The position numbers and the translations under genes were made by a program. Positions 5,702 to 29,800 of a stretch of 64,000 nucleotides of DNA are shown piece by piece (position 1 is the first letter of the stretch; each line of letters starts with the position of its first letter). The notes beneath the pieces are model-generated. The model worked only from the letters and a program-made list of their open reading frames with translations. It searched no databases and was not told the DNA's origin. This DNA comes from Tubulanus polymorphus (taxonomy: Eukaryota > Animalia > Nemertea), in the NCBI RefSeq assembly GCF_964204645.1, contig NC_134029.1:22748950-22812949 (forward strand), given 5' to 3'.

Positions 5702-8432
5702 TTATTTTTTGCCTCCCTTTCCCTTCTTGGTTGGCTCTGCCTTCTTCGCCGTCTTTCCCTTCTTGGCTGCCCTTTTGGCGGCAGCACTTTTCTTCTTTGG
5801 GGGTTTTTCAGTTGGAGCGGCCTGAAAATATTCCAGAAATCATTATTAATGTTAATTCAACATCGGCCTCACGATTGGACCCAACTCATTTAGGCTTATC
5901 CACTTTTCCCAGATTCCCTGAGTTGCTGCGTTATTATAACGTCAAACTTGTAACACAAAATTCCACGAATGAATCTGCCATGGATTAATGCAGAAATTTC
6001 TTGGTTCAAAATATTCTATTTTTCATGTATAGCGCTTAAGAAGATGTGTCATCAACGAAAATAGCATATGTGAATTCCCCAAGTTTATAGGTCCGCTCTA
6101 CCCTGACATTACATAATGATTTATTGACAATCAAAACTGTTAAATTATTATCGAATATGTGTCGGGCAGAATGAACATGACACTTACACCACGTTTCTTC
6201 ATGATCTCCAATTGTCTGTTCTTGCGTTGTCGTTCCTGAGCGAGAATCGCGTGTCGTTTCTGAACAGACGCGTACGGATTCAATCTGATCATCGTTCTGA
6301 TGTTCTTCAACGGATTCTTCTTCAGAACCTTTCTCTGAACGCGAGACCTGAAATTGATCACGATACAAAATTAAATACAATTCACTTAATTAACATATTT
6401 TTCTCTTTCAACGTATTCCCCCTTACAGATCAGGGAATCCAAATATCTGATATTTCCTCAACCAACTAAAATACTGATTCACTCAAAAAATATGCCGAGC
6501 TGTTTTGTAAGAGGCTATCTGTGCAACGAGACACCAAATATTCATATTCCCTGCCAGAATCCTGATCCCTAAGGAATACCAAACTAATATCTTACTTTCT
6601 CGGTCGAAGGGCGCTCTTGATTTCGTCACTCTTCAACAATCGAGCCAAATCGCTGTTTGTCATTTTCGGCATCGGTAAGTTGTAGTCGGTCTTTTCCTTC
6701 GAGGGTGTTTTCCAGGTTCCGTAAAGCTTGTCGAGACGTTTAAAAGCGGACTCGGTCCAGATACAAAATCGTCCGACGTGACCACCGGGGGCAATTTTTA
6801 AAAGATTCAAACGATTGACATTGATTAAAGTAATACCTGAAAAAAAAAGAAGATGATTATATTTAATTTGAAATTCATCATCATTAGGTCAAAAATATAG
6901 ATAAGTTTAATCTTAACTAATTCATAAATTCCATCCCGACCTCTGGGTACACAAATATTGCTTAACAGCCTGGATGGAACCTTCATATAAACTGAGGTGA
7001 GGGAATAGATCTTATAACACATTCATCAGTATCATATTTTCTTGCACTAACCTGGGATATTACGGAAAGCTCGGCAGATTCCATTGTCCTGGTTATAGAT
7101 AACAAGAGGACCTCGTTTCTGGATGCGGCGACGATTCCTCATTTTACCTTTACCGGCACGGAATCGTTTCGATTTGTAAACCTTTTCGATATCGGCCCAC
7201 GCCTTGAAACTCTTCAGAACTTTTACGGCCTCTTTCGTTCGCTTGATTTCTTCGACTTTGTCGGCGATGACCAACGGAACTTCGGGAGTCTCTTCAATTC
7301 GGTGACCTATAACCAGACGAGGGAACACGCGATATAATATCAATTGGACATAGGAGTGAGTCCAGGGGGACTTAACTTGTACAAGTCCATCAAATTTGCC
7401 TAAGATCTATCCATCTATTAGTCCCATTGATAAGATTTCAATTTATTTTATTTGACCATACACCCTTGAAAATCATAACCCAAGTATGGGACAATTGGAT
7501 CCTGGGCCCATACTATTAATCCTACTGAAGTGAACTCAACAGTAAAATCAAACCAAGAACATTCAAACTCTGATGTCTAGACTCAATATGTTCAGATATA
7601 TACCTTTAGACATGACGAGAGCTGGGATACCAGTAGCAGCGATTGCCGAGCACATGGCGTATCTCCTCTGGTTGATGTTGATACGTCTGTGCCAGCGTCT
7701 GTAAGTCTTAGTTGGAGCGAACATACGTCCTCCTCGGCACATGTTACCGAACGCACCCTGACCAGAACGATGAGTACCACCACCTCGTACACGAGGAATA
7801 CGAGCTACAGCTCGTCCTGTACCCCATGACTCAGCAGATGTCTGGTGACCTATAAACAGAACATTCATCAATGTTTACAACAATTTTCACTTCTTCGACA
7901 ATAATAAAATTCTAAATATCATTACAGGTTACTTCTCAATTAATTTACAATCTTCTTACAGTTGATCTTATTTCATTGAGACATCATCTTGTTGACTTAC
8001 CGGCATCTTTGCTGACAGCGTATGGTTGTCTGGTGTTCTTCAACATTTGGAAATGAACGAAGTTGACGATATCCGGCCTGATCGGGGCTCGGAATACTGC
8101 CGGCAACATAATGTTACTGTCGGTAGCTTCATTTTTATCACTATACACCGATATCAATGGACGGGCAGCCTGAAATAGTAATTCAAGAAGGGGATGCTTA
8201 GTTATAAAGTGATGGTCGAACTTACTCAGGCGGCCCGGGCAGCAAGCAAGTGCCGCCTTTAACATCAACTCAAGCCGCGCCGCCGGACCAGAAAATAAAA
8301 TCGCACCAAAAACTACTCAAAATAAACGATGTCTCCATCAACCCATACATCAATCATTTACTCATCACACAATTAAACATTTCAACTAATTTATAAGAAT
8401 AATTACGAACTAATTAAGGCAGAAATTACCAT
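5702..8432 (-). CDS. RPL4: 60S ribosomal protein L4 (uL4); exons 8432-8430 (ATG only), 8169-8001, 7849-7604, 7306-7052, 6836-6596, 6347-6188, 5821-5702
   Basis: Translation includes [10 protein letters not shown]...[18 protein letters not shown]...[49 protein letters not shown]...[23 protein letters not shown] and a Lys/Ala-rich tail. All introns are GT-AG and in phase. AATAAA lies at 5656-5651. Confidence 0.97.
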
Positions 8433-8472
8433 TTTATTTGGAGAATTATTTTAGCGTGACCGCTTCTACACG

Positions 8473-8481
8473 TGTCCGACC
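8473..8481. repeat. Left 9-bp target-site duplication (TGTCCGACC) of the MULE
   Basis: The identical 9-mer occurs at 20822-20830, each copy directly abutting a TIR. Confidence 0.95.
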
Positions 8482-8525
8482 GCAAAAGGTTGAAAGCCTG
8501 TTTTGGTCGATGGCTAGTGACGTCA
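8482..8525. repeat. Left terminal inverted repeat (44 bp) containing the CRE palindrome TGACGTCA
   Basis: GCAAAAGGTTGAAAGCCTGTTTTGGTCGATGGCTAGTGACGTCA. The reverse complement of 20778-20821 differs only at TGGC(T/G)AG. Confidence 0.95.
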
Positions 8526-8644
8526 TCAAGATCGCCTTTTTGTTACTCCCACAGCTAAACAACTCACTTTTAACGGTTAACCGCTGAATTTGAATTTTCT
8601 GTCAAGTGTATTCTTGCTGGCTGTTGATTAAAAGATTGTGAATC

Positions 8645-11600
8645 ATGTTTTCCGAACGTGTTAAGCTTGTCTCCGGACCAGTTGGTGGGAATATTGGTTT
8701 GAAAAAAGAGGTAGATTGCAAGATTATAAAAAACTCACTGGGTAACACTGGTGAACGCCGCGAGGATCGTACACGGTGGTGCAGGCGAGGCGTCGCGACC
8801 GCGCGGCGGCAGGGCTTTTTAATTTTGGCTTTTGCCAGTTTTGGAGTCTTGTTATTGCCACCACGGCCACGTTACCACCACACTCACATTGTCGCTAGGC
8901 CTACTGTACTGCCACTACTTTACTTGCTTGCTACTTACTCGGCTAAATTAATTTGTCTTCATCCACGCTTACTTCCCCCCTCCCCCCCCCCATGTTAACA
9001 AGTAATTTCTGCCAACCGAACCACCAGTCGCAGTAGCCGTAGGCAGTATACTATAGTGCAGTAGTGGGTACCCAGTGGCATGCCATTGCCATGCCACTGG
9101 GTATAGGCCTATGTTGCCCGTACACAGTCACCACCTACTAATGTCTATTTATTAATTGATGAGACCTGTTTTTCTTGGATATTTTGCTTACTTTTTGGGG
9201 TACATACCTCATTTATGTCTTAACAGAATGCCAAAAATCGCGGACAACAACTGAATATCCGATATATTTCCAGTTCTGTACCATTTAGATGGATTGGCAA
9301 AAAGACTCCTTAAGTCCAGTTGAATGAGAGAGAAAATCCTCCATTTTGTGAAATTTCTTGAATTTTTACATTGTCACCATGCCTACGAAATTAAGTTATA
9401 TTTCTTGTGGGGTCTCAACAACTAAATCAGGGTGGCGTAGGCATGGTAACAATGTTCAAATCCAAGAAATTTGACAAAATGGAGGATTTTCTCTCTCATT
9501 CAACTGGACTTAAGGAGTCTTTTTGCCAATCCATCTAATTGGTACAGAACTGGAAATATATCGGATATTCAGTTGTTGTCCGCGATTTTTGGCATTCTGT
9601 TAAGACATAAATGAGGTATGTACCCAAAAAAGTAAGCAAAATATCCAAGAAAAACAGGTCTCATCAATTAATAAATAGACATTAGGCCTTAAATATTCCA
9701 ACAACCATTCCAAATCCAGCAACAAAAAATAAACAATAAATTTTAAGGCCTCGAAACAGAAGAATGGTAGTTCCCTGTATTCAGAGTCAATGAAAATGTA
9801 TTTCTTGTTGCAGATAGATAGCCTAACCAATTTCAGGATAAGTACTTTTCATTCCTTTATTTATATACGTAGCCTAACTGTTTAATCCTGGCCCTGGCCA
9901 CTGAGGGTGTATGCATTAGGTCTGGTCCCAGTTTCACTGAGCTAGTTAGCCAACAATTAAGCTGAGAAATTTTGTTAATTTGATTTAGAGGAATCTTTTA
10001 ATTTAGTGCCTGATGTTAGGCCTTCCACAGCCTGGTAGAGGTGGTTTAGGTGAACAAGTTAGTCTTCACACTGCAGGACTTTTAGGTGAAGGTGAAACTG
10101 GCCCTTGTTTATGCATAGGCTACTGTGTGTGCACGCTTATCTTTATGCTTATTCAATTAGAATACCCATGTAGCTACCAAATAAGCACCGCTTCAGAGGA
10201 TTTTAGAAATTTTCACTTCAATAACACTGTGTTCTATTTTTGGGCACTAGCTACTATTATGCACAATTTTTTCAATCAATTCTATCACATTGATATACAT
10301 ATATGTGTCACTTCTTTTGCATGTAGTAGGGTCTTACAGTAACCAGTGTGCTCTCTCACACCTCCCTGTGATATTGGCCTGAGACTGACAAATAATCTTT
10401 TTTGTAGCGTATTGGTCTCGTAGCAGACAGCATTTTAAAGTATGCTGGGCTAGATGGTGTAGGCTTATTTGAATGGACAAGGATCGTGTGCCCCGGAGGA
10501 ACCATTGAAACATTGATGGAAGGTAATTTCTCGGTTCAGTACTGATTTATATTGTTCATTTTCATTGGGTTACTGATTAGTTGTATATTACAGAATTGAA
10601 AAAGGTGAAGATGCTGAATGTGGAACAACTAATCGTCCATGTTGGAACAAATAATATGACGTGTGATGTCCCGCTTGAGATTGTTCTGCGAAGACACGTT
10701 GAATTAATTCGATTGTTGCTCTATAAATGTACTGGGACCATCATTGTACCAGCTCTTTTTCCTCGATGTGATGAGTAAGTATCAAGAATAGATTTTTCTT
10801 GAAGTACTATATTTATGATCGATGTAATGATTTTTAAATTTCTTTCTTTTTTAAAGTTTCGATGCTGACACAAAAATATTTCATTACAATGAAATGCTGC
10901 ACCGCGAATGCTTTACACTTGGTGTAAAGTTCGTTGATTTTCACTTCTCAAGAGATCTCCTTTCACCGTAAGTAATCGTTTAATTTTAATAAGCCCAGTA
11001 GGTTATGTGCATTTTTTCGCGATTTAAACTAACTTGTTTTTTTCTAAATTTTGTGATCTAGGACTGACTTGTTACACCCCAGCCGTAAGGGAAATCAGTT
11101 CATAAATAACAGGATAATGGAACTACTGCTATTGAAAAATGAAGATGAAATGTACGTAGAATTGCATTATTTTATCCAATTACCAGGTATGCAAACTACA
11201 TAAATTTTATGATTGTACTGGAAATAATGAATGATTCTTAATCAGGTGCCCTCAATACTTTCCATATGAGATTGAAAAGATGCAAAGAAGTAGAGCAGTC
11301 CATCGACGAAAGGTAATCATTTAGCATTGATATCCTAGAAAATGAATGATTTGCAATTAGTTTTTATAACTTGAATACGAAACCACTTTATTCAAAATCC
11401 TTGCATTGAATTAATGAATCATATTGATAGCTGATAGCAAAAAACAAATTGAAGGATGATCAAGCAAGAGCATGGGATGATTCAACAATAGTGGTAAAGT
11501 TGTTTTCCTAAGTGATTTGTACGTGATTTATCTTTATAAAGTTAGATATATTTTAACAGTTTTTTGTATCCTTCAATCCAGTATAGCAGTTTTGACGTTG

Positions 11601-14600
11601 CGCATCATACAAGGAAACAATTCTGTTGTGAAGATCAAAGAGCCTTTTTCACATTCGACCAGGTACATATCATCTCAAGAACTTATGATTTAATATTAGT
11701 TTGGTCACTTTTATTTCACAATTACCTAAAGGCTGTGCATGCACAAATCTGTCTTTTTTTTCCAGTACATGACTAAAATTGATGTGGCTGGTGTTGCTAT
11801 TTGTTTAAAGCCTCAATTATTTACTCCTTTTTATCAGACTAAGAACGTGAGTAATATGTTTCTCGAAATGAAATTATAGAAATTCATTGGTATTGGTATG
11901 ATTTATGCTGTAAAGCTTTGTTTTCATATTCAGGGATGCTACAATAGAAGTTGTCACAATACTAAAAGATTTAACAGAAAAAGGAAGTCAGTGGAACATG
12001 TAAGTTTGATGCCCTTTCTGCGAGACGCGGGTTCATTTTTGTTATTTTTGCTTAGATGTTGAAGCAAAAACAGATTAATGTGCTCTTCCACATTAGGTTA
12101 TTCATCCACAGACGGATCCTGCTGACTCGACATGTTTTTGCGGAGTTGAATTCACCAATTGGAAAGATCTTCTAGACCATGTTAGTTTAAACCATACTGA
12201 AATGTAAGTACAACATAATTCAATTAATTTAGTACCTACAAATCTAAATGACTTAATGCAAATGACTCAGAGATACCCATGTTTTATGTTAGGCCTATAT
12301 GGGTAATTTCATACTCTATCTATTCATATGTCTAAAAAAAGTGAGTTGATAATGTGTATTTCAGGCGGACAATGGAGGAAGAAGGAAAGGACGCGGCTTG
12401 TGACAATTTCTCGGAAGGAACGATAGAGGAAGCAGAAAAGATGCAGGAAGATAGTTTGAAAGAAAGGATAGAAAGATTAAAGATGCAGGAAGATAGCTGG
12501 ATGGAAAACAAAAAACAGCTAAGTATCACAGGTGGTGGAGGTATCGAACCAATCATAATTGATGATAGTGATGAGAATGATTCTGATGATGAACATGTAT
12601 GTAGAAGAAATTTTAGTTACAATCCAACAGAAATGTGCCTCAATGACTATCAGTTTTTGAAAATTCCTCCTGTTATGCCATCAAAGGTCACGTCATTCAG
12701 AATTTGTGACATGTCTAATTCATGTCATTTGGCTGATGATGCCCCCACTATGCCCCACAAAAATCAGTTGGAGGACATAAAAGCACAGATGCAGTCAAGG
12801 ATTGTCCGTGACCCTTCCATTAATATCCATGTGAGACTCGATACAGGCTGCTATTCTATTGATCAGATTAATAGGTTTCTTTTCTTACATTATGCTAAAA
12901 CCAAACAACAAGATCTTTTTGCCATGAATCTTTGGGTAAATAGTAAGCCTTTAAGCCCCACTGATTCAGTCGATTGGGAACAGATTCAAGCATTTTCAAA
13001 TATGCTCTTTTCCTTAAAACCCTCTCAACAATTTCCAGTTGGTAATAATAATAGCGTATCTGTATCAGAACTTCAGACGATGACTAATCAAAAATGGTTT
13101 GAAGGATCTGTGTTAAATGCTTTTGCATCTATGATAAATGAACAGTACTGTAATATTCATGCATTTATGATGCCACTTACATTTGATGCTAAGAAATATG
13201 TTTCAAATTTATATAAAAGATTCGGTCCTAATCCACTCATAAGTTGTGATAAACTAATTTTTTTCCTGCATGTTGGCACCCAAAACGATTTCGTATTTCT
13301 AAATTCTTATGGACATGTTGTTGCCAATCATTATGCACTAGCAGTTTTTTACCCAAAAAGTAACAAACTGTGTTATGCTGATACACTAGCATGGGATTGT
13401 CCAAGGGAATTTAAAAATCATTTAAGATCTGTTTTGAAAGGTTTGAATTGCCCTGATCCTGTTTATATCCACCTCCATGATCCTCATTTTGTTACTGAAA
13501 ATTCAGTGCATGTATGTAGTAATAATTGTACTAGTTATTACCCACTCCAATCATGTTCATCTGTCTGTGGCCCTGCTACATTAATTGGTGCTTGCATTGC
13601 AACCTATTATGAAAAGGATATTTCAAGTGTATTTTCATCTCCCAATGAATTATCTTATCTTAAGAACATTTCTAACTATTCTGATTTTGTTAGATTGATA
13701 TTGATTAATTGGCTTATGAAACATCTAATTGATATTACTCAACTCTTCTCAAAGTCATCTCAACCTACTGCTAATAGTACTACTTTCTCTAAGATATCAC
13801 GATTATCTCGCAGACAGAGACATAAACGATCAACTGAGTCAAATAATACACTAGCTAGTTCTGAATTAAAGATGTCAGACTCTTATATTGCCCCTAAAAA
13901 AAGCAAATCAGTCTTAACTACAGCCAAATCTAAATCTACACCAATTTTGAATAATGAATCAACACTTGAATCTACACCAATTTCGAATTATGAATCTGCA
14001 GCAATTTTGACTAATGAATCAACACCAATTTCGAATAGTGAATCTGCACCAATTTTGACTAATGAATCAACACCTGAATCAACACCAATTTCGAATAGTG
14101 AATCTGCACCAATTTTGACTAATGAATCTACACCAATTTCGAATAGTGAATCTGCACCAATTTTGACTATTAAATCTACACCTGAATCTACACCAATTTC
14201 GAATAATGAATCTACACCTGAATCTACATCCTCAATTTTGAATCTTCAATCCTCATTAACTCTAAATTCAGCTGAACCATTAACTTCCCATATTAATGGT
14301 TCTAAAACTACTATCTCCCATCGCATCAGGAGAGGAAAGCATTATCTTGAAGTTGCTTTTCATTCAACTGGCAGTAAGACGAAGTATAAAAGTTTTCATT
14401 GTACAGACCAAGGTACAAATGACCAGGTAGCCATTGACACTATCAAGAAATACCTCAACAACCAGAATCCACTTAGTGATGAATGGGTTGAAAATGGGGA
14501 AGTAATGACTGGTGCTGACACAAAATATTATTTCGATAGATTCACTTTTGATTTTACAAAAACAGTTCGTCTGCATAAGAATGTGCGGCCTTCATTTGTT

Positions 14601-17600
14601 GGTAACCAGACAACGATGAAAGCTTCCTTAACATTAAAAAAGAATTGGCAAACCCATAGATTAGATAATAAATTTGAATTTATTGAGCCAATTGTTGAGG
14701 ATACTTCTCAATTTGTGGCTGCAGAAATGCTCATAAAATGTTCGTCAAAGTCTTCAGTTTGTAAATCATCATGTGGATATTATCTTTCAAAGTTGAATAT
14801 GTCCAGTAACATCACTAATTGTCCCTCATGTCAAATTGACGTTGTTTTAAATGATAAACAATGTATTCATTGCTCCATTACCATGTCTAACAAATGGAGG
14901 AAAAATGCTGATGGTGAAACACTTTGTTCCAACTGTTACAACTATAAGCTGAAGAATAAACGTGATCGTCCTGTGAAGTTAAGGCAGCAGTTTGAGCCAA
15001 AAAAATTAATTCACCCTCATTTTATGTGTTATTGGGCAACGAAACTTGTATTATTTAGTACTGATTTATCCAAGTGGAGAATCTTCAGCAAACCACTTAA
15101 TGGTCAATATCATGACAATATTCCTTTACAAATTAAAAAGCGACCTAATTTATCTACTAGAGATAGATGGGATGAAAATAGAGTCATGATGAAAGCCACA
15201 GCAATGAAGGTTCTTTCTGCCACCAATGCTCACAATAACCTTCATGTATCAAATGTAAATGATGGCGCCGGTCATGACCATACCCTAGATCAAATTTCAA
15301 ATAGATTGAAATATATTGATAAATCTTCGATAAAATTACATATGAAATCTCAAGACGAAATACCTATTCTAAGTTCTGATTGGAGAAATACTGAAAAATT
15401 ATTAGAGGGTAACTATGAATCTGTCCTTTTATTTCAACGAGGGGATGCCACACTCAAACGTAATTATCACATTATTCTCTCTGATCCTCGTTCTCTGGAA
15501 CATTTATCCAACTTTGGACAATCTGTCATTGGTATTGACGTGAAACATGATTTCAATTCGTGGAAATTCAAAACTTCATTTGTAACTTTTGCAGACAACA
15601 AAAATGAAGGACGTATTGCTGCTGCATCAATTAGTAGTGATGAAGGGGGGCTACTCATGCAACTACCATCCAGTTAGTTCTAGCCAATACACCATGTAAA
15701 GACGAAAAATGTAATCATCCATCTGAATTCTATATATTTAATGATGGCAATGGTTTTTTCAGAATCAAGCCATGTTCATCAACATCTAGATTTTGTCCTT
15801 TTGTACAACATGATAAAGATGCAAGTCTAAAGCAAGGAGCATCTGACAATAATCTTAAATCAGTACTATGTAATTTTCATGTCCTGCAGTGTATTCGTCG
15901 CTTCATGAATGAAAATCAAGAACTTCGCTTATTTTGCAAGCCTCTAGAAACTGGTTTCAAATGCATTATGAGATCATGGGATGCTTCCTCTAGAACTGAT
16001 ATAGCCAATTCATTTATTAGTTTTATTGAGAATGATATTTCTTTAGACCTTATGTCGCAAGATACAAAAACATTATTTATTGATTACCTAAAGAAGAATT
16101 GGTTTAATTCCCAAATTTGGTCTGATGCATTCAATGCTGAATCAATTTATCAGTCAGACCAATCTAACAGAAATAACCCTTTGCTATTAACTGATAATAT
16201 TACTGAGCGCAAATTCAAACAAATAGATGATGTCTACTTAAGTGGACACCTAAATAAACTGATATCATCTTTTGTACGATTACTGTTTGAAAATGTTTTT
16301 AATGATGAGATCAAAGCGACAAATATGAACAATCTCCAATTTAAGCAACTTGACCAACGAGTTAAGAATATACGTCACCTTGAAAAGATAGAAAAGTGTT
16401 GCAAAAGAGCCTTTGATTTATTACAGAATAATGAGATTTTAAAATATGATGAAGAAACTAATTGGTTTGTTGTGAAGAGTTCTTCACGAAAGAACTTAAA
16501 TAGGTTAGAAGATAATGATAATTTTTTCAATGGTGATACTCAATATACATTCAATCAGCTTGATGTTTTAGAAGAAAGATTCCCCGATAAAGTATCAATA
16601 TCCGAGGAACATTCATATGACATTTCAAAAAAATGCCGAAGGTACATAGGAAATTTAGATTCAATATCCAGTCGTATCTTATTCAATTACGTTATTACAA
16701 TCGTTCCTGAAAATTGTCTTTCATACGTAGATGGTAATTGCCATTTAATCAATTTGAAACTAGGTATATGTACTTGTGAAGCTTTTATAATGATTGGACA
16801 ACCATATTTTTGCAAACATCTTTTTGCCTGTTTTGCCCAAAAAAACAATATAACCACAACGAAGGCTTTAATTGATGCATATAAATTCCACATTGTGGAG
16901 CCTCTGCCAACTTACAATTTTACTCGACAAAATATTTCTGTTTCATCTACCCTCATTGATAAGTTAAAAGATCATTCCCACATTGCTAGCTCGAATGATA
17001 TCAATGCTGCTCGGAAAGGGCACATTCTAAGTATTTTACATAATGAAAGCCACTGTGGAATTAAGTTAATAAGCGGACGACCTGCCAAACGACAACCTCA
17101 CAATATGGCTCATAGGCGTGCTGAGGGTCCAATCAAGGACAATCAGGTTGCCATAAACCTTCCTGAACTTGAAGTGATAGACCCTTACTGCCCTAAGGTT
17201 ACAATGCCTAAAGATGCTGAGAATGCAAGACACGGAGGGCGAAAGATAATTAGACCTGCTAACAGAGGTGTATCCTTTTCTGCTATGGTTGAAAATGCTG
17301 CTATCAAACTAGGTAAAAAAGCTAAAATATCAGAAATTGAAACCATAGACTCCACTGATCCAGATCCTGGCAATGATATCGAATTTTCAGCAGATATTTT
17401 AAGTCAGAATAAATCATCCTTACCAAAAAAATCAAAAGATACCAAACCAAAAGATATTAAGTCAATACCAGTTGTTAAAAATGACTCGAAGTCTGTTTTA
17501 TTTGAAAAAAGTATTGTCTGTTCCTTTTGTATTAAAGACAAAATAAATCCTCCATATCTTTGTTCATGTCGCAGGGAACTAGATAGGCACATATCCACTT

Positions 17601-18100
17601 CTCATTCATCTTTGAAACCTATCTCATGTGCTATTTGTTGGGCAGATGGGGTTATTAATTCATATGCAAGTGAAACATTCCTTCAAAAGCACATTCGTAT
17701 TGAACATAATCATCATAAGAAAAAATCTATTGTAATCGATTATAATAATAGAGATGATTATCTCAACAGTTCTCCTATTACAGAAATCAATAATTCCAAT
17801 TCTGAAAAAGAATTAGAAATTCTTATAGATCAACCTGGAAATGCAGGCCTCCAAAACCTAGCAAAATTGAAACTAGATAATCTTTTGTCATCAAAAGTTG
17901 AAAAAACCCCTTCTCAGTTAGTTGCTGAAACCTGCCCTGTCTGCCACAAAAACTGCAATGCTAATCCTAAGAAAAAGTCCACATTCTCAATTGAATGTGA
18001 TAATTGCCATAGATGGTATCATTGGAAATGTGCTCCAATCAATGAGGCTCCTCCTGAACATATCAGGTGGTTTTGTTTTCATTGTGACCCGATTTCCTAA
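8645..18100 (+). CDS. Giant multi-domain MULE transposase of about 2250 aa (SGNH hydrolase, C2H2, Ulp1/C48 protease, repeats, GATA finger, DDE, SWIM, 2x C2H2, PHD); exons 8645-8710 (tentative), 10408-10522, 10594-10774, 10857-10967, 11062-11151, 11246-11312, 11431-11493, 11582-11662, 11766-11846, 11934-11999, 12097-12203, 12365-18100 with a -1 shift at the G6 run 15645-15650
   Basis: All eleven GT-AG junctions are phase-compatible with no stops. Motifs: LVADS/PGG/HVGTNN/DLLHP (SGNH); KWFEGSVLN/NHYAL/YADTL/QSCSSVCG (Ulp1); CIHC-x17-CSNC..RDRP (GATA); GIDVKH, QHDKD, LCNFHV, TDNITE (MULE catalytic core); CTC...CKH (SWIM); CPVC...CDNCHRWYHWKC...WFCFHC (PHD). The first exon is the least certain. 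Confidence 0.82.
9138..9685. mobile_element. Fold-back element/MITE with ~250-bp inverted arms and a 48-bp spacer, nested in intron 1 of the transposase gene
   Basis: 9138-9387 is the near-perfect reverse complement of 9436-9685. The ends can be read as TA|ATGTC...GACAT|TA. Confidence 0.85.
13933..14240 (+). repeat. Coding minisatellite (ESTPISNSESAPILTN-like units) between the Ulp1 and GATA/DDE regions
   Basis: Repeated in-frame GAATC(A/T)ACACCAATTTCGAAT and GAATCTGCACCAATTTTGACTAAT units. Confidence 0.9.
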
Positions 18101-18877
18101 ATAGTTTGTATAGAATATTATTGATCGGGTTTCGAATGAATTCCTGACGTTAGAAATATTTTCATTTCCCATGGTGAACGTAGAAGCCTATAATGACCGT
18201 CACTTAGTCACCTATATATTTACTCGATTATATATAAGGTTAAGAAGCGATGTATATGCACTGGTGTTTATAGTGCTCTATTTCAGGTTTTTTCTTTCAG
18301 GAAAATATATTTTGTGAATAGATTACCGCTTGATTTTTTATGTTACAGGTTACTGCAAAATCATCAGTTATTGTGATGCGTGCCGATGTCTCTGGATGAT
18401 TCTGACCATGTCTAGAACTTCAACATCCTTGACTTATCATCAATTGGCAGCAGTATACATACATGCATGTTCAGAGAGTGTATGAAGAGAGTGTATGGAC
18501 ACATCAACCTCGGTTCAAGGCTGTCCCTGATTAAATTGTATAATCCATATATAATATATATAGATTGGTCCCATTTTAACTTACTCAACTGCTTGAATGT
18601 CTTGTTTGTTATTCGTAAATTTTCACTTATTCATTGATTGTTTCTGTAGAATTTTATATGTGATATATAAACGTGGAAACCAGGGCCCATTGCACTATGA
18701 AAGACACTTGACATTTTTTTGGGACAGATCTTTCTATATGTTTATGTCCTCGAGGCATCTGAAGTTAAGAAAATTCCCTTTGAAAACTGGAAATGACATA
18801 ATGAAATAAGTTGTGGAATGTTTACAAATGACAAAATGAATGAATTTTGCATTCCTAAGGCCCTATATATTTACTGC

Positions 18878-19745
18878 AGTTAGTCCTGTATGTCTTTTTT
18901 ATCGCAATTTACTGTGGTTTATTCCTGTTTGTCCTGTATGTCTTTGTGATCGCGATCGCAATTCATTGGTTGCATTGTTTACTGTTAGTCCTGTATGTCT
19001 ATCGCAATTAAGTTAGTCCTGTATGTCCTGTATGTCTTAGTTAATCGCAATTCATTGGTTGTTGAATTGTCTACTGTTAGTCCTGTATGTCCTGTGGTTT
19101 AGTCCTGTATGTCTTAGTTAATCGCAATTCGTTGGTTGAATTGTCTACTGTTAATCCTGTATGTCCTGTATGTCTATCGCAATTAAGTTAGTCCTGTATT
19201 TCTTAAATAATCGCAATTCATTGGTTAATGAATTGTCTACTGTTAGTCCTGTATGTCCTGTGGTTTTGTCCTGTATGTCTTTGTGATCGCGATCGCAATT
19301 CATTGGTTGCATTGTTTACTATTAGTCCTGTATGTCTATCGCAATTAAGTTAGTCCTGTATGTCCTGTATGTCTTAGTTAATCGCAATTCATTGGTTGTT
19401 GAATTGTCTACTGTTAGTCCTGTATGTCCTGTGGTTTAGTCCTGTATGTCTTAGTTAATCGCAATTCGTTGGTTGAATTGTCTACTGTTAATCCTGTATG
19501 TCCTGTATGTCTATCGCAATTAAGTTAGTCCTGTTTGTCCTGTATGTCTTAGCTACGAGCAATTATCAAACTTGATAATTGCTCGTAGGTCTTAGTTAAT
19601 CGCAATTCATTGGTTGCATGGTTTACTGTTAAAGCTGTATGTTCTGTATCTCTATCGCAATTTCATTGGTTGCATTGTTTACTGTTAAAGCTGTATGTTC
19701 TGTATCTCTATCGCAATTTCATTGGTTGAATTGTTAACAGTCCTC
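18878..19745. repeat. Compound satellite array inside the MULE (modules GTCCTGTATGTC, ATCGCAATT, CATTGGTTG) with a ~337-bp higher-order duplication
   Basis: Dozens of module copies. GTCCTGTATGTCTTTGTGATCGCGATCGCAATT occurs at 18931 and 19268. Confidence 0.9.
19546..19595. mobile_element. 36-bp perfect hairpin (17-bp arms) flanked by a 7-bp direct repeat; probable transposon excision footprint
   Basis: GTCTTAG|CTACGAGCAATTATCAA-AC-TTGATAATTGCTCGTAG|GTCTTAG. Sister satellite units have a single GTCTTAG. Confidence 0.7.
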
Positions 19746-19885
19746 TGTATGTACATGTAAAAATAATTAAGGTTCTGACAACAGGTTTGTAAAGTAATCA
19801 GCTATCTGTTTTGTCTATCGTTGCTTAAATTGTTAACTGTTGTTTTAGAGTTCTGTATGTCTTTGTCGATCATTTTGTCTGCACT

Positions 19886-20118
19886 CAGGGGCGGATCCAG
19901 CATTTTGAAGGCAAATGAAAGCAACAACAGATGGCTGTAAGCCATTCCAGAGCAAGCACCGATAACGCGAAGACCCTCCCTAAAAATTTTTTGGAAAAAT
20001 AGATGCAAGCAGGTGCATTCTGAGCATTACTTAATAGAAAGATTTCATTCGGTTTTTACTCAGTAACGCATAGATTTGCGGCTACATCGGTAAAAATAGA
20101 GGGGTGGAACCGCCACTG
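19886..20118. mobile_element. Degenerate non-autonomous element with CAGGGGCGGATCC-type termini, nested in the MULE
   Basis: Imperfect inverted ends CAGGGGCGGATCC ... GGAACCGCCACTG; no clear TSD. Confidence 0.45.
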
Positions 20119-20777
20119 AATAGCTATTGTTTTGTGTAGGATTGTATCTGTGAATTAAGTAAAGTTACTTACTCCAGTCTGATGTTATTGCTTATTGCTC
20201 GTATTTTATTGTTTTAAGTGTGCGAATACTTTTCTTAGATTTATGGAGATCAGGATGACGAGGGTTCGATTTGAACCAACAAATAAACAAAAACATTCAA
20301 ACCTCAAATTAATCCGTTTACTTGTCTTTATTTTTGGGGAACATTTTTTTACCTAGTTCAGATTTGATAACACAGTAGTCGCTTGTTCCAAAGCGATGTG
20401 CCGTTGAAGACAGACATGAAGGTCTTTGCCGACAGCGATGCTATCCAGGATTTCAAAGGATGTGAAGAAGGTGCATCTTCGACAACCATAGTTTGCAGTT
20501 TTAACAATTTAAAACAATAATAGTTTCATTAAACAACTTAAAATTTAAAGATTTAGTGGACTTACTGTTTAACCAGGGCAGGGATTTCTCGCAACCGTAC
20601 ATGATATATACATACACTAGCAGTAAATACAATGTACTTCTAACCCTTATAAAACTTAAACTATTTTTAGTTATTTTACAATTATTAAACGGCAACGTTG
20701 AAATGCGATGTGCGCTCAGAGCGGCCGTAGTGATTTTGGCGTATTGTGGGATTCGAACCGCTCGGAATTTGTACTAG

Positions 20778-20821
20778 TGACGTCACTCGCCATCGACCAA
20801 AACAGGCTTTCAACCTTTTGC
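20778..20821. repeat. Right terminal inverted repeat (44 bp)
   Basis: TGACGTCACTCGCCATCGACCAAAACAGGCTTTCAACCTTTTGC, followed directly by the TSD TGTCCGACC (20822-20830). Confidence 0.95.
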
Positions 20822-20831
20822 TGTCCGACCT

Positions 20832-20846
20832 GAAAAAGAGAGAAAG
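20832..20846 (-). promoter_or_regulatory. Native RPL4 TCT initiator / 5'TOP tract, displaced 12.3 kb from the gene
   Basis: Minus strand reads CTTTCTCTCTTTTTC, 1 nt from the TSD. Removing the element and one TSD copy places it ~50 nt upstream of the RPL4 ATG, as expected for a ribosomal protein gene. A GC box (GGGCGG) lies at ~20861. Confidence 0.75.
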
Positions 20847-21360
20847 TAGATCGACGAGGTGGGCGGTGAACAGGGTCTGAGAAATAGTTCAAAATTTCAC
20901 AGCAATAACAGCTATATTTCGTTTATACTTCTTATTCCAAGCATATTCTATTTGTGAGATAGGAAATTTATGGACATTCCAATTATATTTTATATACATG
21001 AGATAAGAACTTAACATGCCAATTATCTTTCCAATTAGCGTAGGGATATATTAATTGAAGAGGGCAGCACCAGCTGGGAATATAAGGACTTACTATCATT
21101 AACTGGCGGGCCGCTACAACGGGTCCACCGGAATGTTACTCCTAAGACTGCATGAAAATCCTTTTATATGAATGAAGACGAAATATAAGTCCATATATAG
21201 TCTATATAAAATTTATTTTATTGAAAATATATAAATTATCTTCTATTGTTCTTAGTTTACTGGACGGACAAAGTCTAGGTGCTGCACCAGGCTCGTAGTC
21301 AGGCTTCATTGGCAGTTCCATGAGATGCAACAGTTGGCAGATTACTCATCCAAAAATCAA

Positions 21361-24349
21361 TTACTTTGATCCTGCTACTGGCTTGCTCCGACTAACTATC
21401 GATGAAAACCTTGGCCGGTCAGACAGAGGAGCTTTTGATGACATTCTATCTTTCGCCGCAAGATTAGGGTTACTGATAAAAAAACAAGACAGATATTTCA
21501 AAGTTAAAATCAGTCCATCATTTACAGTAGTATCTCAGTGAATTAGTCGAATATCTGATGAGAAATATACATACGCCAATAAGACATCAATGTTTGCCTG
21601 GGTCTCTTTAGTTTTCTTATGATTACTACCATACATCATGGTTTGAATAGAGAGACACTGGAAAGAATTTAAGATGACAATGATTTCAGAGTTAAATATA
21701 CGAGGCAGGTTTCGATTCAAGGAATTCCTGTTTAGGAATACTGATTCCGTATCACAAACTCTCTACCATAAAGAGATATTAGGTTTACAGATTACGCTAT
21801 GCCAGAATAAGTAAGAGCATATTCTGGTTGAAACTAACACGCTGGATGAGAAATCCAGAATCTGTAGAGACCAATCAAAACCTGCCATAATGACGTACGT
21901 GTACTTATTTGACTCCTTACAATTATTCATCATTACCTTCCTGAAAGCCTTTAAAGCTAGTTCCATATTTCCGTTCGAAAGATGAATGGACGCGATTAGT
22001 TTATTTGTATCGGCAGTCTCGTCTGAAAATTCTCCAAATACTTCTTGTTTTGCTGGTATAGTCGATTTCAACAATGATATCGAATCCTAAAGAAACAAGC
22101 ATCGTCATCATTACTGGAGCATTTTCCATATCAATTCACCTTTAACGAAAAATCTCTTAAAATATTACCGTTTTTCTATCCGTCCTGATCATAAGTTTTG
22201 CCAGTTCATCGTGAATTCCAATTGTTTTTTCGTGATTCGGTCCGTAATGCAGTTGATACATAGCCAAACATTCGTTCAAATAACTTTCAGCAGAGGCTGT
22301 AACACAATGTTTAAAAACCTCAGGCTAGAGCCAGTTTTATAGACAGTATTGGGTCTAACTAAATCATTGTCAATTGAGTTAAAATATTTAACAGGGTGAG
22401 ATTAACACCCTTCTATAAAATAGGTTTCATATGGGAATCAGTGAAGAACTCATTATATCTTAATACTAACCTTCTCCATGGGGATCAGCTGTGTTCGAAT
22501 AAGCCGATGCTAAGGCTTTAGCTGTTGATGCTAGTTCTACACTATTAGTCTTGTAACTGTAATAAATAAACGCATATGGAATAAGACTTGAACATTGAAG
22601 AAAGTACGGGTAACTCTATGGTTGTACTTACTGAGCAGACGCAATTGAATGACCTTGTAGATACATTTCAATCGCATGTTCCTGGTTGGCATGTTTTCCT
22701 TTAGATTGTTCTACGTAAAAATATGTGTTAAAGAAAACCAAGAGAGTCGCCGTCATTAAAAGTGTAAATTTATCAAATCTATAGATAAAAGGATATTTGT
22801 CCCATTCCTTGGTAAATCGGTATCAGATCGAGACTATCGGCTCCTTTAGATTTAGTGATTAAATCTTTCGCGTGTTCGTAGTAAGTCATAGCTCCAGCTT
22901 GTTTCTGCTGTCGCAAATTCACTCTAAATGGAAAAATGGAATATGGCAGATGTTACATGATGATCAGTCATGTTTACCGGCGTCTGTAAATTTCGAGAAT
23001 GAAACAAACTTTGCTAGAGCGATGGCAATTTTGATATCCCACACGCGAGAATCTTCAACTGAGACAGATGGAGATTTTAATCTTTGTTTGGAGATTGAAT
23101 CGGCTTTCAGGAATGCTTGTTCGGCTTCATTTTGCGTACAGAGAAATAAAATTAAGGATACTGACATCTAATAACTATAATCTGGATGAGTCTAATGTTA
23201 CTCAGTCGATGGAAAGTTTTCAACCGATTAAAAGGATATTTTTTCAACACCGAACAAGATCGTCCCATTGTGTAATATATGTCCATAAAAGTCGATAACA
23301 TGGCAGCTTTATCAGAATCCGATTGTGATGTATGCAGACCTGACATCATTATATTCTTGGCTGTCTCAGCGTGTTGGTATGCCTGTGGGGCATAACCTAA
23401 GATAAAGAAATGTTTATAGAGTAAAATAAGGCAGGATTACCGGGTATCTGGTATGACGGGTAATGCCGGAACAAGGCAAGCATCGGACCGACCACAGATA
23501 GATTTCCAAGCTGGGGTCCCCCGCAGAAATTCATTTTAAAAATTCTATGAATTCTGACTGCTTCTAGATTCGGTATCCTCTCACTAGTCACTAGTGTACT
23601 ACAGTCACGCGTGCAACAAGACGTATCTGTCAGTTTACGGCTGAAGGTCGAAAGTATAATCAATTTTTGCCCCAGTGGTTCCGACACCCCTGTACGAGGA
23701 GGAAAGGACTTTTCCATAACGGTGCAAACCTTTCAAATCAAAGTATCCTTGCGCTAAATTGCTGTAAGCCTGAGCATGTTTCCAATGTTTATCACCGTAC
23801 ACAATACGTGTTAGCGCTACGCATCGAGTTAACTGACGAATTGCTTCATCATTCTGAAATAAAGCGACAACAATATAAAAATAGTCCAGATCACATTCAT
23901 CAAAACTGTCAAGTTTCTTTCTTTTTTTTCTATTTACCTTTTCATTGTTTGTCAACTCTTTAACATCTCTTTCTGCTAATTTCAGTAGTTTTTCTGGTGG
24001 TGTCATGTCGATATGCCGCAGGCCGTTTCTCTTCTTCTTCTTTTTAGTCGTTTTAATTTTTTTCTTAGTTTTCGGGGCTCGATTCTCCTCATCGCTGATC
24101 TCGTTGTTTTCTGAGTTTTCATTTTCATTTAAATCCTCCTCGATTTCATCTTCTTCTTCCTCAAATTCATCAGAGCTGAAATACACGATTTGATTTGTAG
24201 CATTATTATTGGGCACCACTAACTAACAACAACCATTATCATCAAGTTCAAGTTCATATTCTTCCCGGATAGAATCAAACAAATATCATTACTCACTAAT
24301 CACCCCCATATCCTGGGACATCAACTATTGATAAAGCAGGGTCGTCCAT
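21361..24349 (-). CDS. TTC23: Tetratricopeptide repeat protein 23-like, multi-exon
   Basis: AIRQLTRCVALTRIVYGDKHWKHAQAYSNLAQGYFDLKG resembles the TTC23 N-terminal TPR. First exon MDDPALSIVDVPGYGGD splices in phase, and the last exon ends GSK* at 21361. AATAAA lies at ~21212-21222. Confidence 0.82.
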
Positions 24350-26850: not shown

Positions 26851-29800
26851 TTACTCTTTTACAGATTTAACAATTCCATTACCGAGAATTATAAAGTCAT
26901 TCAATATCGCTTTTTTGTTAGGAACCGACATTTCCTTTTCGACACTCCTTAACAGGTCGATTCTACTGTAATTTGCCTTTTGAATCTGAGAGAAAAAGAG
27001 TAGAGAGGGCTTGTAAAACGTAATGTAAGCTCATGACAAAACACTGCAAATGAATACGGCTTACACTTACTTTAAATGGAGTTGGTTCAAATACATTTGG
27101 CTTCCACAAAACGGCAATTGTGTCGCCACCATATTTATCATAGAAGAACAAGGCGATATCTCCAAATGATTCCTGGAAAATTGATGGAAAACTTGCTTAA
27201 AAATCGATTATGTTGAAAGGTTTTAGAAAGTTCGGAGATTTTAGACTTACTTCAAGAGTCCTGATATAATATTCAACTGGGTCAAAATCTGTGACTGGAA
27301 ACTGAAACTTTTCGGTCCATTCATTTAAAAATTTCGGTAGACGGTACATTTGTGAGTGGTTTTTTGCTTCGAACGATTGAAAACCTCTGGTTAGACTTTG
27401 GGGTTGAAGTTTTATGAGCAGATTGTATTGTTCTAGAGGTGGTCTGAAAATAGCCTGAATGAAAAAAACAACCACTATCAATTCACAACATCCTTGAAAC
27501 TTACTTTTAAACATTAAACACTATTTGAGAGTAGTTTCAACTCTTTTTAACTCAATCACTCCCAAATATATCAAAATATTCTCAAAATCAGAATATTTCA
27601 TTTTAACTAGGGTACTATTTTTGATGTAAAATCGATCTAAACATTGCCGAAAACGACTACAGATGGAGATATCAGGTAGTCTGATCAGAATCAGAACATT
27701 TTCAATCAATACTGACCTTTAAATTGGCAGGTGAAATCATCGCGGTTGTCTGTAGTTGAGACTCGAGTAAATTCAACGATTCTCGTGCGATAACTGTGAG
27801 CAGATTCAGCACAAGAGCAGACGGACAATCCTTCGTCCACAACGACGTGAATTTATCGAACGGAGTCGATAGAAACATCAGCGGTAATTTCGCTCGATTC
27901 TTCGTAAAGGTTGATTGTATCTCGTTATAATCTTCCTCTGAAATAAAACGAAAACAATCGATACGAGCTCGAAATTGTGTTGATTTTCCGTAATGTGCGT
28001 TACTGAATATTTACTTGTAAGTTCTGAGTTGATGTTGATAATCAAAGGGGTCGCATTCCAATCGTGAGTTGAAAGCAAGTATAGGAACCGCAGAAAAACA
28101 GCCAACGGTGAACTGAAAATAGTGAGCAAGATTGTTTAATCCAAGCGCATTTCGTACATTGATTTAGATAAAACTGAACATTGTCCAATACTTACTTCGA
28201 TACTTGAAATGGAGCTGGATCTACGAACAAACTGGCAACTAACAGATCTATAGCTTCATCTGGTATTTTATTCGATAACAACTGTGCATTAATCCATCGT
28301 TTAGCGAAACACGTGGCAGCACCGAAACTACTATATTTCTGTTGTAACCTGTAATAATATATATACATTCTTTGCATTAGCTGAATTATAGTTACAACTT
28401 GGCTTCGAACATGAAAATAATGAATGTTAATTCACTTTACCCGTGCAAGGCACTCGTTAATTTAGGTAATTTCACTATATCAGTTTCTAACTTCAACGAT
28501 TCGTCCGTATCCAGAGTTTTAACCATTCCTTCCGGAGTCGTAACTGTACGAAGCACTGATATCTCCATCACGTAACCGACTATAATCCTGAATACATATC
28601 CATCCTGAAAATAATACAATATCAACCATGAAAAATGCACATTTAAAGAGGTCAGAGGGCGAGAAAAAGGGAAACGAAACAACCTCACCTTTAGAACATC
28701 TACATATTCTGGATTTATGCGCGTTTTTAATGAACATTGTTCATCTAAAAGTTGCCCAATCTTTATGTGAAATGCAGCTTTCATTCTACGAATGGCCTCC
28801 TTGTCGTCTGGCCACTTACCACTACCCTCTAATGTGCACACCACTGGAATACATTACAAGATGCAATATTCACGTTCCATAGGGATAAACTGAAGGGCTG
28901 CCAACCTCCCAAAAGTGCTATCAGTAACAAATTGAACTTTTTTCAGTAACATTTCATAGAGATATGAAAGAAATTGTTCAATCAATCAGTAATTAACAAT
29001 AAACCCTCAGTAACAGTTTTCATTTTTCTGTAAGTATCATAGCAAAACAATATTTCTTGTTATTGTTATAGAATAGTAACAAATACTGAAAATCACGGAC
29101 AGTTGTGTGACAGCTCTGATTATTGTGTAGCAGTCAACAGGAATCTTGCTGTCTGAACAACATACCTTTAAAAGTTGGCATCATCGGGGAATGGGGTCCT
29201 GATTCTTGCACCATTCTCACAGGTGGAAATACCTAAAGACACAGAAGGTAACAACATCGCCATCAAAACAATATACCTGACTAGAAATGATAAATAAACG
29301 AATAATCATCGAAATTGATGTACCTCAGTGAACCTGAAGACCGGTGATGTGCCTTGAATTGAGTTGATCGTTAGGGGCAAGTCTTCTAGCTGTCGAAGTT
29401 GTTTACACAGACTATCATAAACTTTGATCAAGTCAATTGTCTGCTCTTCGCCAGTGCCGTACTTAATCGAATACCTTTCATCCGATGTTGGTTTCAGAAT
29501 ATCATCTAACTGATCACAAATAAACTGGATTTTCTTAGTTTCGAGTCCGACATGCCTGAAAATGGAAATATTACACGTAGGAAAAGACTTGATAACTTTT
29601 TGAACTAATTCTCTTCAGAGAAACTTACAGATGGATGATATATTCAACGATTCTTTTTACCACAGTTCGTCTTTCAGCGATAGTCTTACTCGGCCAAACG
29701 ACCGCCTCACAAATACTGCTGTCTTGAAAGCGACGTAAATCTGACTTTTCGCCCCAAAATGCCCTGAATTCTGCAGCCTGTTCAAACAATAATAAATTAG

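Follow-up and report, generated by a model that had tools for sequence, protein, structure and literature searches.

A probable complete Mutator-type DNA transposon with a multidomain transposase gene in the genome of the nemertean Tubulanus polymorphus

Can a single gene join an esterase of the SGNH type, a Ulp1-like protease, several zinc fingers and the DDE core of a Mutator-like element (MULE), and if so, does such a gene belong to a mobile element or to its host? This is the question raised by a stretch of the genome of the nemertean Tubulanus polymorphus, the 64,000 nt of NC_134029.1 (GCF_964204645.1) from 22,748,950 to 22,812,949, which we call the window and whose own numbering is used for all coordinates. 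The original prediction, made from the letters of the sequence, had placed here a 12-exon gene for a transposase of about 2250 amino acids (aa) that looked like one of an undescribed MULE lineage. We have compared the window, as contigs and as word depth, with four public sequencing runs labelled Tubulanus polymorphus (runs X1 to X4). Positions 8482-20821 are very probably a complete cut-and-paste DNA transposon, of the Mutator superfamily by homology and most similar to the Rehavkus elements, with a single spliced gene that in intact copies encodes a transposase of ca. 2200 aa.

Boundaries and signs of mobility

The architecture expected of a transposon was borne out on both sides of the predicted gene, where terminal inverted repeats (TIRs) of 44 bp, complementary at 43 of 44 bases, are enclosed by a target site duplication (TSD) of 9 bp (Table 1). 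The TIR core of 33 nt occurs exactly twice in the window, against no occurrence expected from shuffles. The empty site was found as well, in a contig of run X1 (record 2, 3189 nt) that covers positions 6850-8472 and then continues without a gap over 20822-22397, carrying a single copy of the 9-mer TGTCCGACC. In the same run the word depth was 570-855 within the element and 29-47 in its flanks, i.e., about 20-fold higher (ca. 18-26-fold), an excess that accords with the many annotated Tubulanus loci and has to be read with the tool's own warning that contig word depth is not a copy number. In the NCBI annotation at least 11 Tubulanus loci are named, which fall in two 90% clusters. The second of the two long frames described below (15644-18100) is a 100% match to isoform X2 of LOC141914437, annotated as an "uncharacterized protein" of Tubulanus polymorphus, and a word-index search with this frame as query gave 11 Tubulanus proteins from ten loci in the 90% cluster of that isoform. 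Isoforms X1 of 2196 aa are present at three Tubulanus loci with a mutual difference of 3 residues, and copies of the transposase are 99.8% identical across several loci. The element appears to be young and still mobile, the window copy being apparently an inactive member of a family that is still active.

The insertion lies in the 5' leader of the gene for ribosomal protein L4 (RPL4), which is encoded on the minus strand and whose leader is found at 8430-8481 and 20822-20850. The RPL4 ATG is at 8432-8430 (minus strand) and its first intron at 8169-8428; the exons match the Pfam family Ribosomal_L4 and reach a word depth of 14,000-39,000 in run X4. Across the insertion from the ATG there is a pyrimidine-rich tract, CTTTCTCTCTTTTTC, that resembles a terminal oligopyrimidine (TOP) tract, and the outward-facing end of the TIR also bears TGACGTCA and a pyrimidine tract. 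The pairing of the two ends extends to an inverted repeat of 52 nt (8474-8525 with 20778-20829). A duplicated RPL4 promoter was considered as its source and rejected, given the empty-site contig and the 9-bp TSD, which resolve the repeat into the TIR and a nearly palindromic target. With a filled RPL4 leader and a surviving empty allele, the locus lends itself to measuring what a new insertion costs.

Gene structure and the esterase exons

Two long frames are open on the plus strand, 12345-15677 (1110 aa) and 15644-18100 (818 aa), which overlap at 15644-15677 with an offset of -1. By mapping a 2196-aa protein onto the window and taking the splice signals into account we obtained a model of 11 exons, in which ten out of ten introns are of the GT..AG type and the small exons join in frame to 12365. 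Contigs of run X4 skip nine of these introns exactly (10522/10594, 10774/10857, 10967/11062, 11151/11246, 11312/11431, 11493/11582, 11662/11766, 11846/11934 and 11999/12097); for the tenth (12203/12365), an X4 contig begins 33 letters ahead of 12365 and the intron is present in the NCBI model. The contigs of this run also skip the introns of the opposite-strand neighbour RPL4, and because they are spliced we have treated run X4 as RNA, a nature that is deduced from the spliced contigs and is not on record. Translated from Met 10516 up to the stop at 15677, the spliced sequence agrees at every residue with isoform X1 of NCBI LOC141904894 (P0016, 1388 aa); the window is therefore this locus, and the NCBI pipeline reached the same exons.

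The ten small exons of the original prediction were thus found to be correct, and so was the junction HTEM to RT into the large frame, where the Tubulanus paralogs read NHTEM followed by RTMEEEG. A donor at 11186 was tried and rejected, since it breaks the frame; the RNA-type joints place the donor at 11151. Eleven of the 12 exons predicted stand, but the first one, at 8645, was not confirmed. A contig of run X4 (record 24) is unspliced over 8568-9138 and spans its candidate donor at 8710/8711. The NCBI coding start is Met 10516, and the models of other copies (P0011 and P0017) have different 5' ends. The protein length of about 2250 aa is approached by the paralogs only (2196 aa), while the window copy is annotated as a truncated product of 1388 aa. 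That this is a single spliced gene of a transposon is supported by the X4 joints and by the identity of its translation with P0016.

Table 1. Coordinates of the transposon, its exons and its predicted domains, in window numbering.
Feature	Position	Strand	Remarks
Whole transposon	8482-20821	+	12,340 bp, limits set by TIRs and TSD
Left TIR	8482-8525	+	44 bp, 43/44 bases complementary to 20778-20821
Right TIR	20778-20821	-	44 bp, pairs with 8482-8525
Left TSD	8473-8481		9 bp, TGTCCGACC, direct reading of ends
Right TSD	20822-20830		9 bp, TGTCCGACC, direct reading of ends
Candidate first coding exon (original prediction)	8645-8710	+	ATG at 8645, donor GT at 8711, in phase with 10408
Nested palindromic insert resembling a miniature inverted-repeat transposable element (MITE)	9139-9682		544 bp, ends TA..AT, specific to window copy
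Ten small coding exons, first five	10408-10522, 10594-10774, 10857-10967, 11062-11151, 11246-11312	+	X4 joints, frame
Ten small coding exons, last five	11431-11493, 11582-11662, 11766-11846, 11934-11999, 12097-12203	+	X4 joints, frame
SGNH/GDSL esterase domain	10408-11151	+	exons 2-5 of the original prediction; ADS (Ser), CPGG (Gly), GTNN (Asn), DLLH (Asp, His)
Exon with C2H2-like finger	12097-12203	+	C-x-C-x12-H-x4-H, aligns with canonical C-x2-C-x12-H-x3-H at N-terminus of P0005-P0008
Large last exon	12365-18100	+	read across frameshift; as assembled, stop at 15675-15677
Ulp1/SENP-like domain (C48, clan CE)	12681-13757	+	His 13329-13331, Asp 13380-13382, Gln 13548-13550, Cys 13566-13568
In-frame coding tandem repeat	13933-14228	+	24/48/108 nt, Ser/Thr/Pro-rich linker; Tandem Repeats Finder and translation
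GATA-type zinc finger	14862-14936	+	C-x2-C-x17-C-x2-C, further invariant Cys cluster in front
DDE core with SWIM finger	15426-16840	+	D1 15537-15539, D2 15812-15814, C-x2-H 15869-15880, E 16205-16207, SWIM CxC..CxH 16769-16819
G-run with 1-nt deletion	15645-15650	+	six G in window; truncates copy between D1 and D2 of DDE core
Two C2H2-like motifs	17519-17715	+	motif level only; conserved only in P0004 and P0001
C-terminal PHD finger	17933-18085	+	Pfam PHD (PF00628)
Minisatellite, non-coding	18955-19735		units 56/74/166 bp; Tandem Repeats Finder; between stop codon (18098-18100) and right TIR

The 5'-most of the small exons encode a predicted SGNH esterase, and codons for the catalytic Ser, Gly, Asn and Asp-x-x-His are all there, those of the Ser and Gly lying upstream of the NCBI start codon. 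With the Pfam family Lipase_GDSL_2 (cut-off 32.9 bits), 39.2 bits were reached on P0011 and 33.1 bits on P0013, both models of paralogs, and 27.5 bits, below the cut-off, on the window's own P0016, which scores lower because its start codon lies behind blocks I and II. Against the PDB sequences the SGNH part had three matches only, two chains of Oskar's OSK domain (E 0.002) and, in 4c1b, the ZfL2-1 ORF1p esterase (E 0.013). For the enzyme to be active, translation would have to begin upstream of the exon at 10408. Searched by word index, the SGNH part matched two Tubulanus proteins and no others, and one of the two, P0020, is an exon-skipped copy and not a diverged esterase. In the long relatives from other phyla Pfam gave no Lipase_GDSL match (0 of 7 other proteins and 0 of the 9 longest relatives), an absence limited by the chance that small 5' exons are overlooked where genes are modelled on short contigs. 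The N-terminal esterase may be a Tubulanus-specific addition, of the type found in the ORF1 of CR1/L2 retrotransposons, and the existence of a 5' part with multiple introns versus a body of 5.7 kb without any points to a later addition of the esterase exons.

It could be argued that there are two genes here, i.e., that a small SGNH gene or a captured fragment stands at the 5' side of a transposase that is translated separately, the fusion being a product of read-through or of annotation. NCBI isoform X2 (P0003 and P0010; 1995 aa) does start, with MTKIDVAG, in the exon at 11766 and lacks the SGNH part, and the start codon of isoform X1 and the missing Lipase_GDSL matches in other phyla, both described above, point in the same direction, as does the fact that the exon chain was assembled from several overlapping contigs with no single one spanning it. 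However, in the X4 contigs all exons from 10410 to 12097 follow one another in a single frame, with one contig running into 12365, and Gnomon predicts the X1 form at four loci. In addition, the finger of exon 12097-12203, on which Pfam gave no match, has its homologue at the N-terminus of P0005-P0008, which means that the body of the transposase needs upstream exons. We consider two genes unlikely, and treat the esterase exons and the transposase as parts of one gene.

Transposase core, accessory domains and the defect of the window copy

Residue numbers of catalytic sites are those of P0012, an intact protein. In the DDE core, D1343 and E1566 (within TDNITERKF) are invariant in 12 of 12 sequences, and D1435 is kept in nine, the exceptions being two crab proteins and a mantis shrimp protein. 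Behind the second D, the motif LCNFH (residues 1453-1457, C-x2-H) is kept in 10 of the 12; a C/D-x2-H motif after the second D is said to have been put forward by Yuan and Wessler in 2011 as a Mutator feature. The SWIM residues C1754, C1756, C1768 and H1770 are again invariant (12 of 12). The top match of the core in the ESM Atlas had a score of 0.95 with 172 shared features, and PF10551 (MULE) was present in 77% of the members of its cluster. A phmmer scan with P0002 (475 aa, the whole core) against 1.84 billion representatives gave 115 proteins at E<=0.001. In a Pfam scan of 110 further relatives from this search, no transposase families reached E<=0.001 other than MULE (4 of 110) and ZSWIM1-3_RNaseH-like (2 of 110, P0047 and P0097), the MULE match of P0127 (3.1e-8, 34.4 bits) being above the cut-off and those of P0097, P0073 and P0047 below it. 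A local profile built from 25 core sequences aligns P0047 over D, D, CxxH, E and SWIM; over the E motif it also aligns P0127, a MULE protein of Mycena. On the basis of motifs, relatives, ESM features and the 9-bp TSD, we place the element with high confidence in the Mutator superfamily in its wide sense. The core (D1343, D1435 and E1566) would cut and rejoin DNA ends and make the staggered target cut of 9 bp.

For the Ulp1-like domain, a profile of 12 family sequences matched yeast Ulp1 (1euv) in the PDB with E 3.9e-5 (E 0.024 with eight members). Foldseek placed Ulp1, SENP1/2/3/5 and NEDP1 in ranks 1-25 (best E 1.1e-5, target-normalised TM ~0.5) for an AlphaFold model of 12612-13757 that is itself of low confidence, with a mean pLDDT (predicted local distance difference test) of 55.3. 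In the ESM Atlas feature search, 27 of 30 matches were in Peptidase_C48 clusters, with a score of 0.94. The H, D, Q and C that the original prediction had recognized are indeed kept (H607-17-D624 and Q680-6-C686), H and D in 12 of 12 sequences and Q and C in 10 of 12, and the spacings of 17 and 6 residues are those of Ulp1. Judging from its sequence, the domain would probably free proteins of the host or of the transposon from SUMO or a modifier like it; the original prediction had suggested that it could process a polyprotein or take away silencing marks. Just upstream of it, at 12543-12593, there is an acidic tract, IEPIIIDDSDENDSDDE, that is absent from P0004-P0008 and resembles a SUMO-interacting motif, the consensus of which is a hydrophobic core followed by an acidic/Ser run.

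The GATA-type finger was recognized by the family profile against the PDB (GATA-1, E 2.2e-11; GATA-3, E 1.3e-10), with its four Cys invariant in 12 of 12 sequences, and gave 17.5-18.5 bits with Pfam GATA, below the cut-off of 26.8. Other Mutator transposases have an N-terminal zinc-finger DNA-binding domain at the position where this finger stands, and together with the Cys cluster that precedes it the finger is likely to be the end-binding domain. Pfam PHD (cut-off 24) gave 25.3 bits on the window frame and 24.0 bits on P0012, and was also found in P0022, P0024 and P0033. The PHD finger probably reads histone tails and would bias insertion to active 5' gene ends; the window copy is located in the RPL4 5' leader. 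Pfam found no match on the two C2H2-like motifs at 17519-17715, and NCBIfam gave no match. Direct evidence concerns structure, signs of mobility and expression, and the enzymatic and binding roles are taken from family knowledge.

Several points weigh against the reading of the element as a complete transposon of this superfamily and of the Rehavkus type, besides the limits already given for the word depth, for run X4 and for the model of the Ulp1-like domain. All the domains listed in the original prediction were found (SGNH, C2H2-like, Ulp1-like, GATA, DDE, SWIM and PHD), but the Pfam families MULE, SWIM and Peptidase_C48 (PF02902) did not reach significance on the protein: none was present at E<=0.05 on P0012, MULE was absent from the window frames too, and at E<=10, of eight family members, three showed SWIM with E 0.1 and two showed ZSWIM1-3_RNaseH-like with E 0.03. 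The MULE, SWIM and C48 assignments are putative, drawn from family profiles, motifs, a fold of low confidence and language-model features. The AlphaFold model of the core (P0002, pLDDT 54.7) gave nothing at E<=0.001 with Foldseek against the PDB, and VIA-align wide found helical segments only (Z up to 8.2) and no transposase; the fold was not recovered, which we attribute to the poor model. The Rehavkus subgroup was judged from element features only, and the Tubulanus element has its repeats at the 3' side only, whereas the Rehavkus of Tribolium are described with repeats in both long inverted termini.

It could also be argued that the DDE core represents a superfamily of its own, so far without a name, whose similarity to Mutator is a resemblance only, the CxxH motif and a zinc finger behind the core being common to several superfamilies. 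The lack of a MULE match on the protein, a MULE cut-off passed by 1 of the 110 relatives scanned, the small size of the family (the 115 representatives mentioned) and the absence of a structural match all fit this idea. On the other hand, the transposase families found in the relatives are MULE and its derivative ZSWIM1-3 only, the ESM features point to MULE clusters, and both a TSD of 9 bp and a SWIM finger are typical of Mutator. A separate superfamily is in our opinion quite improbable, and we keep the element in Mutator.

The -1 shift noticed in the original prediction is real and corresponds to a deletion of 1 nt in the G-run of the window copy. One additional G behind 15644 was present in a contig of run X1 (depth 633 of 633) and in one of run X4 (381 of 381), contigs of run X2 have six G as in the window, those of run X3 break at the G-run, and intact paralogs read DEGGATHATT across it. 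Since the X1 and X4 contigs and the intact paralogs carry the extra G, the window copy has suffered the deletion, between the first and the second catalytic Asp. The G-run is intact in the majority of copies and in the expressed consensus. Homopolymers are classic sites of both ribosomal frameshifting and assembly error, and the seven G of the X1 and X4 contigs could be invoked in favour of one or the other. Nevertheless, the six G of the X2 contigs and the breaks of the X3 contigs indicate that both forms are present in the reads, and the paralogs are annotated with an intact frame and the window locus as a 1388-aa protein, which makes a programmed frameshift or an assembly error highly improbable here. 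With this mutation, the window copy would be unable to make a transposase and could be moved in trans by intact copies.

Copies differ at other points. The MITE-like insert, whose arms (9138-9387 and 9436-9685) are 250 nt each and 97% complementary, is skipped by contigs of runs X2, X3 and X4; its word depth in run X1 was 10,600-14,200, and hence it represents a very abundant family. The DNA contigs of runs X1, X2 and X3 break at 9976-9978 and share loose ends that diverge from the window, so that copies differ in their 5' non-coding part, by an insertion elsewhere or by a deletion in the window copy. At 19909 there is a poly-G that is hypervariable between copies, being longer by 8, 9 or 13 G in the contigs of three runs. 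Outside the element the window has other pieces of host genes (430-2118, 28437-28853, 47646-48077 and 53800-54243), namely a SKI/SNO/DAC protein (Ski_Sno_DHD, 9.4e-36), Nrap domain 4, an exon of an amiloride-sensitive sodium channel and an exon with a telomerase RNA-binding domain.

Relatives and comparison with known elements

The order Ulp1-like, GATA, DDE and SWIM, with or without PHD, recurs in the limpet Patella caerulea (six near-identical proteins), in the mantis shrimp Oratosquilla, in the crabs Scylla and Portunus, and in ENA/JGI records. The protein P0001 of Priapulus caudatus (817 aa) has the C-terminal part only, from behind the second Asp via SWIM to PHD. In one ENA record (P0027) there are two Ulp1-like regions in tandem, at residues 96-431 and 566-948, and the protein P0021 of Oratosquilla oratoria has a Gly for the second catalytic Asp and keeps the protease residues. 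At middle distance, the relatives of the DDE core included P0057, P0080, P0099 and P0102 (E 1e-5 to 1e-13), from the glomeromycote arbuscular mycorrhizal fungi Gigaspora and Cetraspora, in which Pfam matched no family.

Of the crab proteins P0025 and P0136-P0138, from Scylla paramamosain and Portunus trituberculatus, the two that were aligned (P0025 and P0136) have E and Y in place of the protease Gln and Cys, E in place of the second catalytic Asp, and Y..N in place of CxxH. The others, P0137 and P0138, are in the same 90%-identity cluster as the aligned crab proteins, a cluster that spans two genera. From these replacements, the crab proteins look like a domesticated, catalytically dead descendant. 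It is hardly conceivable that the whole family consists of domesticated host genes, since, although the Tubulanus gene is annotated as an ordinary protein-coding gene, is present in spliced RNA-type contigs and has crab relatives without catalytic residues, as domesticated genes do, it also has TIRs, a TSD and an empty-site contig, near-identical copies at several loci and, in Tubulanus, intact catalytic residues.

With somewhat more doubt than belief as far as the whole is concerned, we propose an unnamed clade of giant Mutator elements (Ulp1-like, GATA, DDE, SWIM and PHD) in nemerteans, molluscs, priapulids and crustaceans, unseen by the Pfam MULE model. In Tubulanus it would be mobile now, as seen in the filled/empty polymorphism of the RPL4 leader, and would carry a retrotransposon-type SGNH domain as intron-bearing 5' exons, which would make it the first esterase-fused DDE transposase with a GATA DNA-binding part; in portunid crabs, a gene that lost both catalytic centres may live on as a host gene.

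In the literature searched we found no nemertean transposon described, and there Tubulanus polymorphus and transposable elements co-occur only in a genome-size study. The element would give Nemertea a complete cut-and-paste transposon of 12 kb, apparently still mobile. It is also a natural experiment in domain stacking, with one DDE enzyme bearing what appear to be a lipid-type esterase, a protease for ubiquitin-like modifiers, a finger of the transcription-factor type and a reader of histones, and it opens testable ideas about SUMO control of transposition, chromatin-guided targeting of 5' gene ends and the puzzle of what esterases do in mobile elements, to which the catalytically dead crab relatives add a possible case of domestication. 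On the practical side, pipelines based on Pfam will miss this transposase family, and the genome annotation shows its members as "uncharacterized" ordinary genes.

Rehavkus, a group from Repbase, is placed in or beside the Mutator/MULE superfamily. TSDs in the MULE group are of 8-11 bp, mostly 9 (PMC6446971, Table 1). Rehavkus elements have a 9-bp TSD, TIRs of 26-412 bp, one ORF (open reading frame) with PHD, a minisatellite before the 3' TIR and a size of 4.9-18.5 kb, and their hosts are arthropods and an annelid, with Nemertea not listed (Dupeyron et al. 2019, PMC6446971). Among the examples are Rehavkus-1_TC and Rehavkus-1_HR, the latter from the leech Helobdella robusta, with 10,679 bp, a 9-bp TSD and a 26-bp TIR (PMC6446971). 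The Tubulanus element shares with them the TSD of 9 bp, a TIR within the range of 26-412 bp, the one large ORF, the PHD finger, the 3' minisatellite, the size and a lophotrochozoan host. It differs from them in having SGNH, Ulp1 and GATA, which the passages of PMC6446971 consulted do not mention for Rehavkus; the comparison is one of element features and not of sequence. None of the 20 relatives whose species names were looked up comes from the listed Rehavkus hosts.

A Ulp1 domain is encoded by Mutator transposons of hydra, lancelet and plants (Bao et al. 2010, PMC2836005), and in Figure 1e of that paper these two domains, Ulp1 and PHD, are aligned between Mutator transposases and those of Ginger1. 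The animal MuDR elements (hydra and lancelet; Repbase Reports cited in PMC2836005) and the Ulp1-MULEs of plants (Kaonashi/KI-MULE, melon, rice) have in common with the Tubulanus element a C48 domain of the Ulp1 type in a Mutator-type element, and they differ from it in that the Tubulanus protease is N-terminal of the DDE core, is not seen by Pfam Peptidase_C48 and is accompanied by GATA and SGNH. Ginger1 also combines a DDE-type transposase with Ulp1, at the C-terminus, in one family together with PHD and in aquatic invertebrates (PMC2836005), but its core is of the Gypsy-integrase type, unlike the Tubulanus core with its Mutator-type motifs, SWIM finger and 9-bp TSD.

SGNH esterases are known in non-LTR (long terminal repeat), LTR and Penelope-like retroelements (PMC3905857, PMC5408684). 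As in the ORF1p esterase of CR1/L2/RTEX (4c1b), in the GDSL ORFs of rotifer LTR elements and in Athena, the SGNH domain of Tubulanus stands at the front of the coding region, and as in CR1/L2/RTEX ORF1p it keeps Ser, Gly, Asn and Asp-x-x-His. Those are retroelements, however, and here the domain is joined by introns to a DDE transposase; the resemblance to 4c1b is weak and is surpassed by that to Oskar's OSK domain, which is non-catalytic and gave the best match in the PDB. As for the claim of an undescribed MULE lineage, the marks of Rehavkus and the presence of Ulp1 in animal Mutator elements had already been published (PMC6446971, PMC2836005), so that the claim is right only in part. We did not find an SGNH domain or a GATA finger described in a DDE transposase in the literature, Repbase Reports not being covered, and for these two domains the claim may hold. 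The kind of element is known, and the additions of the esterase and the GATA finger are what is new in it.

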